Positions 1,657 to 13,579 of a stretch of 14,469 bases of DNA are shown piece by piece (the first letter of the stretch is position 1; each line of letters begins with the position of its first letter). The position numbers and the translations under genes were made by a program. The stretch comes from a virus. Taxonomy: Duplodnaviria; Heunggongvirae; Uroviricota; Caudoviricetes. The notes under the pieces were generated by a model that worked only from the letters and a program-made list of their open reading frames with translations, did no database searches and had not been told where the DNA came from. The stretch is from IMG/VR virus record IMGVR_UViG_2740892028_000014; one strand, 5' to 3'.

Positions 1657-2717
1657 CCGTCCAGAAGAAGATATTTTCACTGGCTGGTATGTCGCCAAAA
1701 TCCAGCAATATGACGGCAAAATCAGTTATTAATACAGCAGATACAAGCAAAGTTTATCATTTGCTGGTGGTCGGAACGGATGCCTTAACCATACCAGAAA
1801 TCTCGGGCGATGATATTAGCATTGAGAAGGTCAGCGGCTGCGCCAGAAAATTTCTGGTCGTAGATGATGTCTTCCGCTCGTGTAGTGACTCCACAAAAAC
1901 ATTCGTCCACGCGCGTGACGTTAACGAAATGAGCGCGATGTACTGTGCTTCTGGTTCTTCCAATAGTGAGTTTTCGGAGTCCATAAAAAAGAGCTTGCCG
2001 TTATGCGGCAACACGGTTTATGGTTATAAGGCACCTCATAAAACGGGTGCCGGGATTGGCGTCCTGAAAATTCTGAAGGCGACATATGACGCGCCGAGCG
2101 TCTTTTTTTATGTCGTAGGTCTGACTCACCCATTTTTTGGGCGTTGGTGTATAATCCAGCGCCTTTGTCAATCAATGGTGGCTCAGGCGGGGGCTTCTTC
2201 GGAAGCGCCGGTATCCTTCAGAGCCGGTTACGCCAACCCTGTCTGGGCTACCACCAGCGAAATTGGCGTTTCCGGTGGTAGCGTAACCTGCTATCTGAAG
2301 GAGGCTGCCACATGCTGGCTACTACCCCTACCCAAAAACCGCAATTTATCTGGATTATCGCCGCAGTTCGCCGCGATTGCCCGACAATTACCGCCAAAAT
2401 TCATCATATTGCTGCCGAGTCTGAACGCGATGCTCGCCGTTCTCTGGTGCGCGATCACGTCTGCTTTTTTGCTGGTCGTATCCGCATGGAGGTGGCACAT
2501 GATTAAAACCTACGATGTGCATATGGATCCCCTCGAACGCACAAGCCAGATCATCACACTGACAGAAGTGATTAACGACATTCTGGTGAGCAACTCTCCC
2601 TCACGAGACGAAAGACTGAAGGCGTTACTCGCGATATTGGATCTCGCCGTTCGTGACGTTCATTTCCTGCTGGAAGGTGGACAAATGCCATGCAAAACGG
2701 GGGCAACCAATGAATAA
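1650..2717 (+). CDS. hypothetical protein; open frame of 355 aa, probably composite (see 2312..2506 and 2499..2717)
   Basis: ORF track 1650..2717. The 5' two thirds have ordinary codon usage. Between about 2300 and 2500 this frame is rich in rare codons (CTA, TTA, ATA, AGG) while another frame looks coding. True 3' end is uncertain. Confidence 0.35.
2312..2506 (+). CDS. small hypothetical protein, 64 aa (alternative frame inside 1650..2717)
   Basis: ORF track 2312..2506. Strong Shine-Dalgarno AAGGAGG 7 nt upstream of the ATG. Good codon usage. Stop overlaps the ATG at 2499 (ATGATTAA). Confidence 0.45.
   Translation: MLATTPTQKPQFIWIIAAVRRDCPTITAKIHHIAAESERDARRSLVRDHVCFFAGRIRMEVAHD
2499..2717 (+). 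CDS. small hypothetical protein, 72 aa ([17 protein letters not shown]...)
   Basis: ATG at 2499 preceded by GGAGGTGG. Same frame as the 3' end of track ORF 1650..2717. Stop at 2715-2717 overlaps the next ATG. Confidence 0.45.
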   Translation: MIKTYDVHMDPLERTSQIITLTEVINDILVSNSPSRDERLKALLAILDLAVRDVHFLLEGGQMPCKTGATNE

Positions 2718-6370: not shown

Positions 6371-6476
6371 ACCTGTACCACCTATACCACTTTGCTAATT
6401 CAGTATTAAAAACAGTGCGTTATAGTGGTACAGGTCAATATCTTACCTATACCAGACCTGTACCACCTATACCATT
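6371..6476. repeat. iteron array I (putative replication origin): ACCTGTACCACCTATACCA units, both orientations
   Basis: Near-identical 19-20 bp units at 6371-6390 and 6457-6475, inverted copy TGGTACAGGTC at 6426-6436, AT-rich spacer between. Lies just downstream of the primase gene. Confidence 0.6.
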
Positions 6477-7475: not shown

Positions 7476-7480
7476 ATAAA

Positions 7481-7585
7481 TGGTACAGGTCTGTACAGGT
7501 GGGGAGAGGTCATTTTTACCCACCTGTACCACCTGCAGGCCTCGCCACACAAGGGTTTGTGACATGGTGGTACAGGTGGTACAGC
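7481..7585. repeat. iteron array II: GGTACAGGT/ACCTGTACC units related to array I
   Basis: GGTACAGGT at 7482-7490, CTGTACAGGTGG at 7491-7502, inverted CACCTGTACCACCTG at 7521-7535, GGTGGTACAGGTGGTACAG at 7567-7584. Same core as 6371-6476. Confidence 0.6.
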
Positions 7586-7738
7586 AAAAACAGCGATTTT
7601 CTTTATAAGGTATGTTTTGCTCATCTGGCAGACGGAGGTATTCGCTGCGGTTTGGCACATAGCCCAGAACAGCAAAGAGTTTTACGAGACTTTTGTAAAA
7701 TCCAGTGTACAAGGGGCGTGACGTTTTTGAAGGTGAGC

Positions 7739-7757
7739 ACTACGAAATTTTCGTAGT
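7739..7757. promoter_or_regulatory. 19-bp palindrome ACTACGAAA-T-TTTCGTAGT, operator-like
   Basis: Perfect 9-bp inverted arms with a 1-nt spacer inside the untranslated region upstream of the 8079 operon. Binding protein unknown. Confidence 0.3.
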
Positions 7758-7950
7758 TCAAAAAATAGCCTCTGAGATGTTGTTATGCCTGTTCAGCAAA
7801 CCATCCGCATAGATGATCGCGAATCAAATTACCAATGGAGCAAGAAGCAAGGGCAGAACTGAAAAGCGCCTGCCGTGAAGAGTAATGCGACACCATAAAT
7901 ATAGTTTTTAGAGTCCATAAAAAACCTGTCAAAACCTGACACACAGAACG

Positions 7951-7984
7951 ATGCCACCAGCTACTGAGCGGTGGCATTTTCTTG
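7951..7984 (+). terminator. rho-independent terminator-like hairpin
   Basis: ATGCCACC (7951-7958) pairs with GGTGGCAT (7970-7977); loop of about 11 nt; followed by TTTTCTT. Loop is long for a canonical terminator. Confidence 0.45.
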
Positions 7985-8045
7985 TGCTATTCGTTTCACA
8001 TTTTGCAATGAACATGATGAATATTGCGATTTGTGAAACTATAAT
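7983..8045 (+). promoter_or_regulatory. promoter of the 8079 operon: consensus -10 TATAAT (8040-8045), poor -35, upstream TGT-N12-ACA dyad (7983-8000)
   Basis: Perfect TATAAT. The hexamer 17 bp upstream is ATGAAT. Dyad TGT GCTATTCGTTTC ACA lies about 50 bp upstream of the -10 centre. Interpretation as activator-dependent is inference. Confidence 0.4.
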
Positions 8046-8078
8046 GACTGTTGTTTTATACAGTTCTAAGGGGGCGTT

Positions 8079-8252
8079 ATGGCTATTTCAGTAAAGCCAG
8101 TATTGATAAGTGAGAAGCAAATGGAAGCGATAAAGAAAATTCAGGAGGAGCAGCGTAAAAAATCAGAGGTAGGAGTTGCGCCAACGATCCACGAAATTGC
8201 TCGGGGATTAATGGATAAGGCGCTGGCTTACACTTTAACTGGACGTGGGTAA
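8079..8252 (+). CDS. small protein, 57 aa, possible ribbon-helix-helix-like regulator
   Basis: Below the track length cut-off; read directly: ATG at 8079, AAGGGGG 5-11 nt upstream, stop TAA 8250-8252. Protein MAISVKPVLISEKQMEAIKKIQEEQRKKSEVGVAPTIHEIARGLMDKALAYTLTGRG has a strand-helix-helix layout. Fold call is inference. Confidence 0.5.
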   Translation: MAISVKPVLISEKQMEAIKKIQEEQRKKSEVGVAPTIHEIARGLMDKALAYTLTGRG

Positions 8253-8256
8253 ATCA

Positions 8257-9600
8257 ATGGCTACGTGGCAACAGGGTATTAATTCTGGTGGTTTTCTGGC
8301 TGGCATCGGTACGCAAAATGAGAATGCGCCAAAGGCAAGCGACATTAACGCAACGCTTGGTCTGATCCGCGAAAACAATGAACTGGCTCGATCAGGTGCA
8401 AATAACGTTGCTCTGACAGGTCTTCGAGGTCTGGCTGGAGTTGCTGATATTTATAAGCAGCAGCAACAGCAGGAGCGTAAAGCGGCATTCCAGAAAGGCT
8501 ATGCGGATGCTTATGCGTCCGGCGACAGAGAGAAGATGCGTAATCTGGTTACTGAATTTCCTGATGAGTTTGAGGAAGTCAGAAAGGGAATGGGGTATAT
8601 CGATGATGCCCAGAGGGATGATTTTGGCAATCTGGCGCTTAAAGCACAGGTGGCCTCATCGCTGGGCGCTGGCGCATTTGGTCGATTCATGATGGACAAT
8701 GAGAAGGAAATGCGCCGCCTTGGCGTTCCGCCAGAAGTCATCGCTGACATGCATTTTAACGACCCGCAGGGCTTCCAGCACTTTGCAGGTAATCTGGCAC
8801 TATTTTCTCTCGGTCATGAGAAGTACTTCGATATCAAAGATCGAATGGAAGGTCGTCGACTTGAGCAAGGGCGACTGGATGAAAGTATGCGTCAGGCTGA
8901 CATGGAGAACGCGAGAGGATGGGCAAATATCCAGAACGCTCAACTAGACAGGGCTCAGCGAGCACAAATTCACTCAGATGAGATGGGATTGAAGCTAATG
9001 GAGCTGGGGCAAAAAGGTAAGCCGTCAGCAGACTTAATTAAGGGATTAAATTCTGATATTACCAATTTTGGCAAAAATTATAACTCTGTCAGAGCGGCAG
9101 CAAACTCTCTGCAAGCCCTTAGCAAGGTAAATACTGGCGCTGCCCAACTTGGGATTATCTTCAACTACATGAAATCTCTTGACCCGCAGTCAGTCGTTCG
9201 TGAAGGCGAACAGGTTCAGGTAATGCGGTCTGATGGCATATGGGGACAAATCAAAGGATACATAGACCAGCTTAATGCTGGAAACGGCCTGTCGCAGGAG
9301 GCAAAGGATAACATTGTTAACGCCGCAAAAATCAACGCCAATGCTATGGGGCAGCAGTTTAACCAGCAGGTTGACGAATATCTCGATACATATGGAGAAA
9401 CCATTCCTCAGGGGCTAAGAAAAAGCCTTGAAAGAAGGAAAGCGAAGCTATTTGACGATGTTTCCGGGCAGCCTACATCACAGGCTGGCACTGGGCAGGC
9501 AAAAGCGGCAACCGGAGGAATATCAGAAGGCGCAACGGCAACCAACCCTAAAACTGGTCAGAAAATTATTTACAGGAACGGAAAATGGCAGCAAATGTAA
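8257..9600 (+). CDS. hypothetical Ala/Gln/Gly-rich protein, about 447 aa; no enzymatic motif seen
   Basis: ORF track 8245..9600 uses a GTG; the first ATG is at 8257 (MATWQQ...). The upstream small-gene stop overlaps this start region. Poly-Q run and predicted helical, low-complexity sequence. Last 16 nt overlap the next gene. Confidence 0.7.
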   Translation: MATWQQGINSGGFLAGIGTQNENAPKASDINATLGLIRENNELARSGANNVALTGLRGLAGVADIYKQQQQQERKAAFQKGYADAYASGDREKMRNLVTEFPDEFEEVRKGMGYIDDAQRDDFGNLALKAQVASSLGAGAFGRFMMDNEKEMRRLGVPPEVIADMHFNDPQGFQHFAGNLALFSLGHEKYFDIKDRMEGRRLEQGRLDESMRQADMENARGWANIQNAQLDRAQRAQIHSDEMGLKLMELGQKGKPSADLIKGLNSDITNFGKNYNSVRAAANSLQALSKVNTGAAQLGIIFNYMKSLDPQSVVREGEQVQVMRSDGIWGQIKGYIDQLNAGNGLSQEAKDNIVNAAKINANAMGQQFNQQVDEYLDTYGETIPQGLRKSLERRKAKLFDDVSGQPTSQAGTGQAKAATGGISEGATATNPKTGQKIIYRNGKWQQM

Positions 9601-11702
9601 TCTTACCGGAAGGTTTTGTGCTCGATGAACAACCTGATAACTCACAGTTTCCTGATAGTTCACAGCTTCCTGATGGTTTTGTGCTTGATGCCCAACCAGA
9701 ACAGCAGCAATCACCTTTGGTTTCACCATGGGAAAATTCCAGACAGGAAAATGTTGTTAATAATGCTAACGGTTTCGACCGTTTTATGTATGGCGTTCTC
9801 AGTGGATTGATGGATGTTGGTAAAGGTGTTGGCCTGTTTCAGGATATGACACCAGAAGAGCAAGCCGCAATTCAGTCTCTACAGCAGAAGTTAGCGGCAA
9901 AACCATCAACCGCACAAGATGTTGGTGAGTTTGTTGGACAAGCAGCGCCATTTGTTAGTGGTGGTGGGATTATTTCTCAGGTTCCGAAAGGTGCGGCAAG
10001 GCTGGCTGCCGCCGCAGGGCTTGGTGCTGGAGAAGGGGCTATTGTAGCCAATGGAACAAATAGCGATGTTGCTTCCGGCGCTGCTATTGGCGCTGTGGCT
10101 GGCCCTGTAGCCGAACTTGCTGGCCCTGCAATTAATAAAATAGCTGGGAAATTAACCAAGAAGAATGTTTCTTCGATTCCAGATATTGAGGGGATTACTC
10201 CTGCCGAAGAGAAAATTCGTAAGTTATCTGCACAAGGCAACCCAAATCTTGCCTCTTCGCTTGAAGGGCTAGATCTAAAACCTCAGAAAGAAATTGTTGA
10301 GGCTGCAAATAGGCTTCATGTTGATTCAGTTCTTCCTTCTCATTTTTCAGGAAATGAGCAATACCAAGCTGTAGAGCAAGCCCTAAAGTCACGGACAGGA
10401 TCAGCGTTAAAAGCTCAAGAAGATAAAGCAATAAGCGAATTAGCCTCTAGTGCTGGCAAGATAATCGATGATGTTGCTGGTGCGCCAGATGCGTTAGCTA
10501 TGAGCGAAAAATATATTTATCAGATAAATAGTAGAATGGAAGCACTAAAAAACCGTAGTGATCAGTTATATAAACGTGTTGATTCCGCTCTATCACCAAG
10601 AACAAAAGTCGAAGCAAATAACACAAGCACTATGCTGGAAAAAATCGCTGATGATTTAGGTGGGTGGGATAATCTTGACCCAATAGAAAAGCGAGTTTTT
10701 ACAGCAATAAACCCCGGCCCAGATAGCATCCTAACGTATGCAAATTTAAACAGGCAAAGGCGTTTAGTTGGTGATGCCCTAAATAAAAAGCAGGGGCCAT
10801 ACAAAGATGCTGATAAAGAAGCGCTATCAAGACTATATGGAGCTTTAGCTGAAGACCAAAAATCTGTCTTATCCAATACTGGATACTTGCGAGATTTCGA
10901 AGTCGCACAACGCCTTGTAGCTATGAGAAAAAACTTAGAAAGGCAAATGGTAAATCTTCGCGGGAAAACACTTAATGGGGATATAGCGTATAAAGTAACG
11001 AATTCTCTTCAATCTATGGCAAAAGGTGATGCGAGAGGGTTTCGTGAGATTATGCAAAATACTCCATCAAGAACATTGCGAAGGGAGCTAGTAGGAACAG
11101 CATTAAGAGATATGCTTTCCTCTGGGAAGCGCGGGGCCGACTTTAATCCATCTGGCTTTGCAGATTGGTGGCAAAACTTGCAACACAGTGGACAGCTAAA
11201 GACTTTGGCTGAACATTTGCCAAAAGAAACAATGAGCGGACTATATGATGTATACAAAGTTGCCAGAGCAATAAAAAATGCTAAAGCGCATGAAATATCT
11301 ACTGGTAAGCTGAATGAGTTTGTAAACAGATTTAATCGGGTAACAGCTCCATACGAACTAGCAGCAAAACACATTCAAAAAATAGGCACGATGATAGGCG
11401 CTCATTTTGGATCGCTTGGAGCCATTGCTGGGGCTGATATTGGAGCAAGATTGGCGAGTAAAGCTCGATTAGCTGGTGGAGCAGGGGCGGCTGATGCTGC
11501 GGATAAATTAATTGCCTCGCCAGCCTTCCAGAGCGCAGTAAAAAATCTACACGGAAAAGCGCCTGGGCACATTGTTGATTCACGTATCAGGCGCTCCCCT
11601 CAATGGAAGAGTTTTTTTAACTCTCTTCCTGAACAGGAAAAACGGACCATCGCCCGACTGGGCATCATTACTTGGCTATCTAATGATCCAGATAATGACT
11701 AG
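9585..11702 (+). CDS. hypothetical 705-aa protein with N-terminal tandem repeat and Gly/Ala-rich zipper-like segments
   Basis: ORF track 9585..11702. Tandem peptide repeat LPEGFVLDEQP / LPDGFVLDAQP, mirrored in the DNA at about 9600-9700. Gly/Ala stretches such as GAARLAAAAGLGAGEGAIV and GSLGAIAGADIGARLA. No Walker or nuclease motifs seen. Confidence 0.75.
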   Translation: MAANVILPEGFVLDEQPDNSQFPDSSQLPDGFVLDAQPEQQQSPLVSPWENSRQENVVNNANGFDRFMYGVLSGLMDVGKGVGLFQDMTPEEQAAIQSLQQKLAAKPSTAQDVGEFVGQAAPFVSGGGIISQVPKGAARLAAAAGLGAGEGAIVANGTNSDVASGAAIGAVAGPVAELAGPAINKIAGKLTKKNVSSIPDIEGITPAEEKIRKLSAQGNPNLASSLEGLDLKPQKEIVEAANRLHVDSVLPSHFSGNEQYQAVEQALKSRTGSALKAQEDKAISELASSAGKIIDDVAGAPDALAMSEKYIYQINSRMEALKNRSDQLYKRVDSALSPRTKVEANNTSTMLEKIADDLGGWDNLDPIEKRVFTAINPGPDSILTYANLNRQRRLVGDALNKKQGPYKDADKEALSRLYGALAEDQKSVLSNTGYLRDFEVAQRLVAMRKNLERQMVNLRGKTLNGDIAYKVTNSLQSMAKGDARGFREIMQNTPSRTLRRELVGTALRDMLSSGKRGADFNPSGFADWWQNLQHSGQLKTLAEHLPKETMSGLYDVYKVARAIKNAKAHEISTGKLNEFVNRFNRVTAPYELAAKHIQKIGTMIGAHFGSLGAIAGADIGARLASKARLAGGAGAADAADKLIASPAFQSAVKNLHGKAPGHIVDSRIRRSPQWKSFFNSLPEQEKRTIARLGIITWLSNDPDND

Positions 11703-11721: not shown

Positions 11722-12078
11722 TCAATCTTTATTCTTTGAAATAGAGTCATTGATCTTTTCGAAACACCAATGAAATCCACAAAAGAGAGCTACACCAATA
11801 TAACAATACAAAACTATCAACCACCTTTCAGTGTCCGAAGGGTAAAAAACATCAATTACATAAGCAACACCAATTGGTATTAATGCTAGTAATAACATCG
11901 ACATAGGACGTACAAACTTCTGAACTATATCAATTTTATAGAACCACAAGGCGGTATGTTTAATGATATAAGTAAAGATGGCTGCGCCAATAATGGCAAA
12001 AAACACCATCGATAAGGTCGGGTATAACTTTGCGACAATTAAACCCAACAAAATAATTATAACTGCCTGCCCCCTCAC
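11722..12078 (-). CDS. small integral membrane protein, 118 aa, about 3 predicted TM helices
   Basis: ORF track 11722..12078 (-). GTG start with AAGGGGG 5 nt upstream on the minus strand. Hydrophobic segments IIILLGLIVAKL, VFFAIIGAAIFTYII, LLLALIPIGVAYVI. AT-rich codon usage. Confidence 0.55.
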   Translation of the reverse strand: MRGQAVIIILLGLIVAKLYPTLSMVFFAIIGAAIFTYIIKHTALWFYKIDIVQKFVRPMSMLLLALIPIGVAYVIDVFYPSDTERWLIVLYCYIGVALFCGFHWCFEKINDSISKNKD

Positions 12079-12191
12079 ACCAACCCCCTTTAGCGTTGTT
12101 TAGAATGGCAATCATCATATATCCAAGACATGGCATTTGGTACATAGCTTGGGTCGGGATTTCAAATCCGATCCCCGTTGATGGGGCCGTT

Positions 12192-12573
12192 ACAGTACGC
12201 GCATATCCGCTTTATGTGAAACAGGAAGATTTTTCTGATATCACTGCCACAGCAAAACACCAATTTCGTGACCAGTACGCGCGCGAGGGGTATCAGTTGC
12301 AAAATTTTTTGCAACTGCGTCCGACCAGTACGCGCACGATGGAGGGGAGTGCCATAAAACTGTTCTCTACATAAGACAGAGTGGTGGTGATGTGTTGATT
12401 ATCGGCGTATATGCGCACAGGACGCGCTATGACGATGTTTTATGCGGGTACACCAATCACATGTATCTGATGTGATAAATCGTGTTACATGACATATCAT
12501 GTTGTGCTGGTGGTTATCACGACTTTCTGAATCTGGCCTTTGCCTGATATTTTGCGACAAGTACGCGCGCGTA
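12192..12573. repeat. family of short repeats with an alternating CG core (consensus roughly ACCAGTACGCGCGCG)
   Basis: Copies at 12192-12203, 12271-12287, 12324-12339 and 12557-12573, with a fifth at 14232-14247. Longer shared context CAATTTC..GA.CA.TACGCGCGCG at 12261-12287 and 14219-14246. Confidence 0.5.
12294..12317. promoter_or_regulatory. 24-bp palindrome CAGTTGCAAAA-TT-TTTTGCAACTG
   Basis: Perfect 11-bp inverted arms with a 2-bp spacer, between two copies of the CG-core repeat. Confidence 0.4.
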
Positions 12574-13458: not shown

Positions 13459-13579
13459 GTTGGTTCAGAGCTGGGCTGTGTTGGTTCAAAATGAGTTGAT
13501 GTTGGTTCAATATTTCAGAAAAAACACAATAAAAACAACGATCTTTACAAATTGAACCAACTGAACCAACTGAACCAAC
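13459..13579. repeat. iteron array: three GTTGGTTCA copies phased 21 bp apart plus a perfect tandem triple of the inverse TGAACCAAC
   Basis: GTTGGTTCA at 13459-13467, 13480-13488, 13501-13509. TGAACCAAC x3 contiguous at 13553-13579. Lies in the divergent region between 12901..13356 (-) and 13616..13903 (+). Confidence 0.65.

Follow-up and report, generated by a model that had tools for sequence, protein, structure and literature searches.

It is known that satellites take over or reshape capsids, the specificity of packaging, and tails. Described systems close to the locus examined here include the ejection proteins of the Salmonella phage P22 and the phage-inducible chromosomal island (PICI) EcCIMP1. 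P22 gp16 associates with inner-membrane preparations and makes the cytoplasmic-membrane part of the DNA channel, and it has no strong transmembrane helix (PMC10461980; bioRxiv 10.64898/2026.09.03.749273). Leavitt et al. reported that gp16 and gp20 must match as a pair while gp7 is exchangeable (PMC10461980), and the C-terminal 'club foot' of gp20 has been proposed as the template for gp16 assembly across the cytoplasmic membrane (bioRxiv 10.64898/2026.09.03.749273). EcCIMP1 has been induced and transduced experimentally by the P22-like phage Kapi1; the same study labels its corresponding genes 'DNA transfer' and suggests a role in packaging or morphogenesis (PMC11773190). Here we analyzed a 14,469-nt stretch of viral DNA (IMG/VR record IMGVR_UViG_2740892028_000014, hereafter the window) and in particular an open reading frame (ORF) at 9585-11702 on the plus strand, which begins with ATG and encodes a 705-aa protein (hereafter the target). 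We consider it likely that the target is the equivalent of P22 gp16, the third ejection (E) protein, and that a PICI of the EcCIMP1 family carries it and its cognate gp20-type partner as a cassette of two genes. The identity and synteny of the gene-16 slot, the mosaic of two modules, the purifying selection on the pair and the conserved slot on the island are the parts that our comparisons support directly. The features on which the argument depends are the following.

8257-9600, plus strand: gp20-type ejection protein, predicted periplasmic tube and cognate partner of the target (Pfam Inj_translocase, 3.5e-73; PHROG 917, 3.3e-133).
9585-11702, plus strand: the target, an ejection protein in the gene-16 slot and candidate inner-membrane channel component, by homology and synteny.
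9585-10124, plus strand: N-terminal module of the target (aa 1-180), inherited with the 3' half of gene 20 as one block, from the comparison with Kapi1 and the phage contig L008.
9603-9698, plus strand: paired LP(E/D)GFVLD motifs at aa 7-17 and aa 28-38, flanking an 18-nt tandem duplication (9633-9674).
10260-11684, plus strand: C-terminal domain (aa 226-700), all-alpha and exchanged as an allele of its own, from AlphaFold2, identity to Sf101 gp13 and Foldseek against BFVD.
11376-11519, plus strand: conserved C-terminal double glycine zipper and subsequent Gly/Ala helix (aa 598-645), from conservation in 78 homologues and a modelled helix at 610-644.

The start of the target (9585) overlaps the stop of the upstream gp20 homologue (9600) by 16 nt. 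Over its full length the target matches PHROG 6704 (1.1e-173), and aa 113-654 match PHROG 770, 'DNA transfer protein' (4.8e-51), which P22 gp16 matches at 2.3e-266. A collinear full-length homologue, Kapi1_058, follows the gp7-like and gp20-like genes of phage Kapi1. Sf101 gp13 (911 aa) occupies the same slot, and its C-terminal 550 aa are 58.6% identical to aa 153-701 of the window protein. Among full-length relatives the closest is P0002 (79% identical). It is encoded in L008, a metagenomic P22-like phage contig, where it is preceded by P22_CoatProtein, P22_Tail-4, Phage_stabilise, DUF2824 (gp14), P22_gp7 and Inj_translocase (gp20). Furthermore, 10 of 12 relatives from species-representative genomes of other species reside in complete P22-like virion modules, running from coat to gp20, and are preceded by homologues of coat, gp4, gp10, needle, gp7 and gp20; the relatives sampled outside E. 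coli are in prophages, not in islands. Because of the overlap with gp20, the matches to PHROG 6704 and 770 and the shared slot in P22-like virion modules, we assign the target, on sequence and gene order, to the third ejection proteins, in the gene-16 slot, of P22-like podoviruses. The same observations support one of the two roles put forward in the initial annotation of this DNA, that of a virion internal protein.

The initial annotation had set its suggestions against possible homology to a soluble enzyme, and none appeared: the C-terminal domain matched no solved structure in the PDB and the target matched no enzyme family. No Pfam-A family was found for the target and NCBIfam returned noise only, while PADLOC found nothing on the target, its gp20 partner or the neighbouring ORFs. 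A Foldseek search of the C-terminal domain against BFVD recovered phage SLT, LT_GEWL, M15B and 'injection' proteins, with E values down to 3.6e-19. Pfam found no SLT or lysozyme catalytic domain in the target but did match Sf101 gp13 and the EcCIMP1 protein to PF01464.

Comparison with phages also divides the pair into modules. The window gp20 is 74% identical in amino acid sequence to Kapi1_057, but as a mosaic, with aa 5-75 and 196-451 ~95% identical and aa 76-195 only ~30%. Similarly, aa 1-180 of the target are ~93% identical to Kapi1_058 and the remaining ~520 aa ~30%. A single unbroken blastn block against Kapi1 (8845-10105, 88.8% identical) covers the second half of gene 20 together with the first quarter of the target gene. 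Against L008 the gp20 proteins are 96% identical and window positions 8252-11681 are 84.6% identical at the nucleotide level; this similarity begins at the gp20 start codon and stops within ~20 nt of the target stop, with nothing beyond. Over gp20 aa 76-447 and target aa 1-200, synonymous divergence (dS) from L008 amounts to 0.03-0.19, but over target aa 201-705 it is saturated (>3). Taken together, these comparisons indicate that the C-terminal half of gp20 and the N-terminal module of the target were co-inherited as one recombination block, while the helical domain was swapped independently. Such co-inheritance fits both the club-foot structure and the matched-pair genetics of P22. The N-terminal ~80 aa of gp20 (8247-8490) share ~88% nucleotide identity across many Salmonella P22-like phages, as expected if gp7 and the tail hub dock there on a universal surface. 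Since the copies of the 705-aa allele, found in 87 E. coli genomes, are all at least 99% identical, the ratio of nonsynonymous to synonymous divergence (dN/dS) was calculated against L008 rather than against E. coli copies. The ratio is 0.05-0.27 and both ORFs are intact, which points to purifying selection on the gp20 and 705-aa pair.

The element that carries this pair resembles EcCIMP1 in its Ant, small leader ORF, primase types and PerC. The window encodes AlpA, an AntA antirepressor, a primase (zinc ribbon, Toprim and DUF5906) and PerC, with no coat, portal, capsid, tail or lysis genes in the window, and its Ant is 98% identical to the Ant of EcCIMP1. In E. coli ACN001 (L001) this element also has an integrase, next to yicC, and is located between yicC and dinD. 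Gram-negative PICIs are recognized by an integrase, AlpA, a primase-replicase, a length of ~15-20 kb and the lack of capsid, tail and lysis genes. Because AlpA, AntA, primase and PerC are present and the capsid, tail and lysis genes are absent, we regard the window as a predicted EcCIMP1-family PICI and not a phage. Eight islands were inspected (L001, L003, which is EcCIMP1, L006, L007 and L023-L026), and in all eight an E-protein cassette follows the same small leader ORF.

8079-8252, plus strand: 57-aa ORF leading the cassette, island-family-specific (WP_001018522/WP_001018524 upstream in eight of eight islands).

The leader ORF gave no Pfam-type, NCBIfam or PADLOC match. Of 5426 complete E. 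coli genomes, 521 (about 10%) have the segment containing it (7600-8250). This segment is 100% identical in the E. coli strain D72 (pig; NZ_CP035312.1), so D72 or a near-identical strain is the probable origin of the window. Behind the leader, the cassette consists either of two genes (gp20 and the gene-16-slot gene) or of four (gp14 (DUF2824), gp7, gp20 and the gene-16-slot gene). At least three alleles of unrelated appearance are found in the gene-16 slot, namely the 705-aa protein, a 906-aa transglycosylase and a 701-aa protein 30% identical to P22 gp16. EcCIMP1 and Kapi1, the single island-helper pair that has been proven, share ~26% identity in gp20 and ~23.5% in the gene-16-slot protein, compared with 81% in gp14. 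At least three allele types in one slot imply repeated selected replacement, and we regard the cassette as a selected and repeatedly replaced part of these satellites, not debris.

Several related loci were observed alongside these islands. Fusion or deletion derivatives of the target occur in E. coli records (P0003, P0004 and P0048): in one type an Arm-DNA-binding domain, the N-terminal domain of integrases, is fused to the final 59% of the target, and in another the N-terminus of gp20 is fused to the C-terminal part of the target. These fusions are evidence of rearrangement inside the islands. In Xenorhabdus, an integrase 65-67% identical to that of EcCIMP1, an AlpA homologue and a primase adjoin a gp20 and gene-16-slot pair at two loci (L014, 8367-11158, and L015, 16828-20752). 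A whole P22-like prophage is visible in L015, and the L014 contig begins at gp20; a satellite-beside-helper arrangement in another genus is possible.

The N-terminus of the target carries the repeats that had drawn attention to it. LPEGFVLDEQP and then LPDGFVLDAQP, as reported in the initial annotation, are both present, at aa 7-17 (nt 9603-9635) and aa 28-38 (nt 9666-9698). The accompanying report of a DNA tandem repeat needs to be divided. The motif pair corresponds to a 32-nt direct repeat, 81% identical, whose copies lie 63 nt apart from start to start and are thus not strictly tandem, but a true 18-nt tandem duplication lies between the motifs (9633-9650 and 9651-9668, 83% identical in the repeat search; called by TRF at 9633-9674 with period 18, 2.3 copies and 87% matches). 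It encodes DNSQFP/DSSQLP. Several codons differ synonymously between the two LP(E/D)GFVLD copies, so the peptide has been conserved and was not recently duplicated. The pair occurs in every member of this N-terminal module type, which makes up 11 of 120 homologue clusters, always in two copies, and none was found outside the type in the loci examined. Given these synonymous differences and the pairing in every homologue of the type, the motif is under selection. The 18-nt duplication, in contrast, is recent; Kapi1 and most homologues lack it.

Beyond the motifs, the target contains two Gly/Ala-rich regions, aa 111-195 (23.5% A, 18.8% G) and aa 601-645 (31% A, 20% G). The strict GxxxGxxxG pattern is present three times (aa 165, 601 and 612), where composition shuffles predict 0.42 (P about 0.014), and [GAS]xxxGxxx[GAS] is present 12 times, where 5.05 are predicted (P about 0.004); counting small-xxx-small-xxx-small more loosely shows no enrichment (22 against an expected 16.9 +/- 4.3). 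The zipper glycines G601, G605, G609, G612, G616 and G620 are kept in 64-77 of 78 homologues, and those of the N-terminal zipper are less conserved. An AlphaFold2 model built on the alignment of these 78 sequences predicts an all-alpha domain at aa 226-700, with pLDDT near 90 across most of aa 230-580 and lower values at ~580-620, whereas aa 1-225 are of low confidence, with pLDDT <50 for most of aa 105-225. The N-terminal module (aa 1-180) includes Gly/Ala-rich, predicted-disordered stretches. The long helical region anticipated in the initial annotation is therefore seen in the model as this all-alpha domain. Its picture of GxxxG/A stretches followed by the helical region holds with one correction: the zipper that is best conserved is found towards the C-terminal end of the helical region, so such stretches are not solely ahead of it.

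Several observations weigh against the identification proposed here. P22 gp16 has no significant similarity to the target by BLASTP (E 0.47), nor does the C-terminal profile align significantly with the gp16 C-terminal alignment by hhalign (E 0.38). The N-terminal region of the family profile does align to gp16 aa 2-196 (hhalign probability 99.4%), but this link seems to come largely from mosaic members with a P22-type N-terminus, and the precomputed PF26808 match is on P22 gp16 and absent from the P0001 and P0002 clusters. The helical domain is probably linked to gp16 indirectly, through PHROG clustering and a chain of intermediates: PHROG 770 groups gp16 with the 906-aa EcCIMP1 protein, this protein is 23.5% identical to Kapi1_058 over 531 aa (E 9e-12), and the target in turn aligns to Kapi1_058. 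Given the BLASTP and hhalign values above, we do not claim that the helical domain is directly homologous to P22 gp16. In addition, the authors of the EcCIMP1 study read the genes as possible factors in packaging or morphogenesis, and the transduction frequency was low (PMC11773190). IS1 or IS3 interrupts the gene-16-slot gene in a few genomes (H82, H83 and H99), so the host can do without the gene, and two further copies (L023, 10134-11949, and L026, 9017-10832) are annotated as truncated or lacking the C-terminus. Finally, expression, packaging and ejection of the island-encoded proteins are predictions from P22.

The membrane question also counts on this side. Where the initial annotation suggested a membrane-active effector and proposed transmembrane prediction as a check, no classical transmembrane helix was found in the 705-aa protein (Kyte-Doolittle 19-residue maximum 1.37 against a threshold of 1.6). 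The GxxxGxxxG segments do not lie in a hydrophobic membrane-spanning helix, as their mean hydropathy is below the transmembrane threshold, and any membrane insertion of the zipper segments would have to be driven by an oligomer or a partner. Membrane activity of the target is thus proposed by analogy with P22 gp16. A review lists putative C-terminal membrane helices in all gp16-like homologues tabulated there (PMC8954989), and the conserved double zipper is located in this same C-terminal region. Changes in P22 gp16 that escape the exclusion protein SieA, G532W and P546S (PMC10461980), lie in a Gly/Ala-rich segment of gp16 whose relative position is similar to that of the window zipper, although this is a positional analogy only.

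The regions on either side of the cassette contain two further features that bear on its role.

7960-8045, plus strand: terminator-like hairpin (7960-7975), the dyad TTGCAAT...ATTGCGA and TATAAT (8040-8045), a weak candidate for a regulated promoter, read from the sequence.
11722-12078, minus strand: convergent 118-aa protein with four hydrophobic segments, a candidate exclusion protein from the position of sieA downstream of gene 16 in P22.

A consensus sigma-70 scan ahead of the cassette found no promoter. An origin of the upstream region as a phage late promoter was considered and rejected, as 7476-8260 has only marginal similarity to phage DNA, no consensus promoter and no Rfam family. The convergent ORF has four Kyte-Doolittle segments above 1.6, as in P22 SieA. 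Against SieA types A or B, however, BLASTP gave E 1.8, and there was no match to PHROG 7745 and none in PADLOC. The SieA identity of this ORF was rejected on sequence, and the agreement consists of position, orientation, size and four hydrophobic segments. The ORF co-occurs with the 705-aa allele in L001, L006 and L007, and a 2-bp deletion relative to L001 shortens its N-terminus and removes a shared leader.

This leader belongs to a swap site after the gene-16 slot, where the convergent gene encodes one of three cargo proteins with the same first 14 residues, MIAILN(K/N)AKGRVGV (window 11722-12078, minus strand; L001 18322-18717; L025 12298-12735; L026 11141-11530). The cargo comprises a 131-aa protein with four transmembrane segments, a different four-segment protein of 129 aa, and a 145-aa protein with no transmembrane segment predicted by Kyte-Doolittle, which resembles the gene after gene 16 in a P22-like prophage (L009). 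The product of the post-cassette gene of EcCIMP1 (11749-12447) is 232 aa long and bears a signal of the lipoprotein type (…LLAGC). This product and the four-segment proteins are candidates for the superinfection-immunity phenotype of EcCIMP1.

If the cassette works as its P22 counterpart does, the following sequence of events can be drawn from the P22 papers (PMC10461980; bioRxiv 10.64898/2026.09.03.749273). Induction of the island by a P22-like helper would lead to synthesis of both proteins and their incorporation into helper procapsids, and on infection both would leave the capsid before the DNA. The gp20-type protein would dock through its conserved N-terminus on the helper gp7/gp10 channel and form the periplasmic tube. 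The 705-aa protein would diffuse to the inner membrane, where its N-terminal module (aa 1-180) would bind the C-terminal 'club foot' of its own gp20, and insertion of the Gly-zipper helices and the helical domain would complete the DNA channel into the cytoplasm. The most speculative step is that the matched pair would give particles carrying island DNA an inner-membrane channel of other specificity than that of the helper, which might for example evade SieA-type injection blocks in recipient lysogens. In P22, SieA escape maps to gp16 and gp20 and foreign gp16 is still packaged (PMC10461980); the two-gene cassette in the window is exactly the pair that requires a match in P22. We put forward tentatively, as a possibility that we hold to be somewhat doubtful, that the exchangeable ejectosome cassette of this satellite family re-keys the inner-membrane DNA-entry step for its particles. 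With the same reserve, re-keyed particles could perhaps enter cells that block the injection proteins of the helper, for example those whose resident P22-like prophages exert SieA-type exclusion, or cells in which the channel of the helper fails.

Three other roles for the cassette were considered. Island E proteins might mix into helper virions, produce mismatched, dead channels and so lower the infectivity of the helper. Replacing gene 16 or gene 20 singly with a foreign version does render P22 virions non-infectious, even though foreign gp16 is packaged (PMC10461980), and the low identity of the EcCIMP1 gp20 (~26%) and gene-16-slot protein (~23.5%) to those of the helper would favour such a mismatch. 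Yet EcCIMP1 left Kapi1 titres unchanged after induction (PMC11773190 Fig. 4B). Furthermore, one subunit would suffice as a poison, whereas the islands always retain the two matched genes as a minimum, frequently alongside gp14 and gp7, and poisoning would be buffered because gp16 acts in trans and is probably in excess (bioRxiv 10.64898/2026.09.03.749273). We judge helper interference unlikely. The proteins might instead protect the resident cell, acting in an uninduced or weakly induced state as decoys or dominant negatives that block channel assembly by a superinfecting P22-like phage. EcCIMP1 adds to superinfection immunity against Kapi1 in lysogens with no gene assigned (PMC11773190), and gp16, which moves by diffusion within or along the inner membrane, attaches to gp20 tubes in trans (bioRxiv 10.64898/2026.09.03.749273). 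The cassette proteins, however, have no signal peptide or transmembrane helix with which to reach the periplasmic face, a terminator-like hairpin precedes the cassette with no consensus promoter found, and homologues of gp14 and gp7 would be superfluous for this purpose. The separate gene for a small membrane protein or lipoprotein at the sieA position is a simpler candidate for exclusion, and protection by the cassette itself seems very unlikely.

The pair might also be an inert remnant, left without a role when a degraded P22-like prophage recombined with the island. The EcCIMP1 region was in fact first called an incomplete prophage (PMC11773190), and the copies with IS insertions and the two annotated as truncated would agree with decay. 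Against decay stand the intact ORFs with dN/dS of 0.05-0.27 and the sharp limits of the phage similarity, at the gp20 start codon and ~20 nt from the target stop. In addition, the slot is the same behind an island-specific leader ORF in all eight islands, with the leader segment in 521 genomes, and the three or more allele types in it imply repeated selected replacement. A remnant is extremely improbable on these grounds, and an ejection cassette maintained by the satellite is the reading we prefer.

Elsewhere on the island, two RNA families matched at Rfam gathering level, the Hfq-binding RNA isrK (2031-2108, plus strand, 67.8 bits) and the C4 antisense RNA (2171-2258, plus strand, 79.9 bits), both within an 'ash family protein' ORF (1650-2717). 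These matches suggest an antisense-RNA immunity module of the P1/P7/P4 style on the island. A cluster of GGTACAGG / CCTGTACC-type repeats occupies the non-coding DNA at 7476-7590, after the primase and two small ORFs (for example GGTGGTACA twice at 7566-7584), and is a candidate for island iterons or a replication origin. Short tandem repeats at 6371-6390, 6445-6474 and 13553-13579, with ACCTATACC just past the primase stop and TGAACCAAC three times (100% matches) upstream of perC, are possible regulatory or binding sites.

The protein itself is an ordinary new mosaic allele of a known class, and its satellite context has been noted in the literature but not functionally explained. The allele nevertheless adds to a class with no solved structure, namely the inner-membrane part of the channel through which podoviruses eject their DNA, and its map of two modules, a gp20-linked N-terminus and a swapped helical domain with a double zipper, could guide mutagenesis or modelling of the gp20-gp16 junction. 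A satellite family that both keeps and replaces ejection genes suggests that genome delivery is contested among satellites, helpers and resident prophages. If re-keying is correct, it would represent a new class of satellite piracy, acting on genome delivery and not on capsid size, packaging or tails, and the published SieA work that maps escape to gp16 and gp20 makes the idea of contested delivery directly testable.

Compared with known proteins, the target shares with P22 gp16 (609 aa, Salmonella phage) the slot right after gene 20, a match to PHROG 770, the N-terminal profile alignment, Gly/Ala-rich segments, the lack of a strong transmembrane helix and a convergent gene for a small membrane protein next to it, which in P22 is sieA. 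The two differ in that there is no significant similarity over the C-terminal 500 aa, that the window protein has no PF26808 and is 96 aa longer, and that gp16 has neither the LP(E/D)GFVLD motifs nor a strict GxxxGxxxG. Transmembrane glycine-zipper channel formers have the conserved GxxxGxxxG in common with the target, but their hydrophobic spanning helix has no counterpart in it. Kapi1_058 (722 aa, Escherichia phage vB_EcoP_Kapi1) and the other members of PHROG 6704 are collinear with the target in the same slot, and in Kapi1_058 the ~93% identity over aa 1-180 includes both motifs. In contrast, the C-terminal 520 aa of Kapi1_058 are ~30% identical, it lacks the 6-aa (18-nt) duplication, and it belongs to a complete phage whereas the window is a satellite.

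Sf101 gp13 (911 aa) and the 906-aa EcCIMP1 protein are also found in this slot, as fusions to a lytic transglycosylase in the manner of T7 gp16. The structural neighbours of the window protein in BFVD are mostly such fusions, although it lacks the SLT/lysozyme domain and has a different N-terminal module. The EcCIMP1 paper (Pick, Stadel, Raivio, ISME J 2025, PMC11773190) reads the genes as possible factors in packaging or morphogenesis and not as an ejectosome. EcCIMP1 carries its four-gene cassette (gp14, gp7, gp20 and the transglycosylase-type gene-16-slot gene) at tRNA-Thr, while the window island carries only gp20 and a different gene-16-slot allele, between yicC and dinD. Both nevertheless belong to the same island family and have in common Ant, a small ORF, the primase types, PerC and the slot in which the cassette resides.

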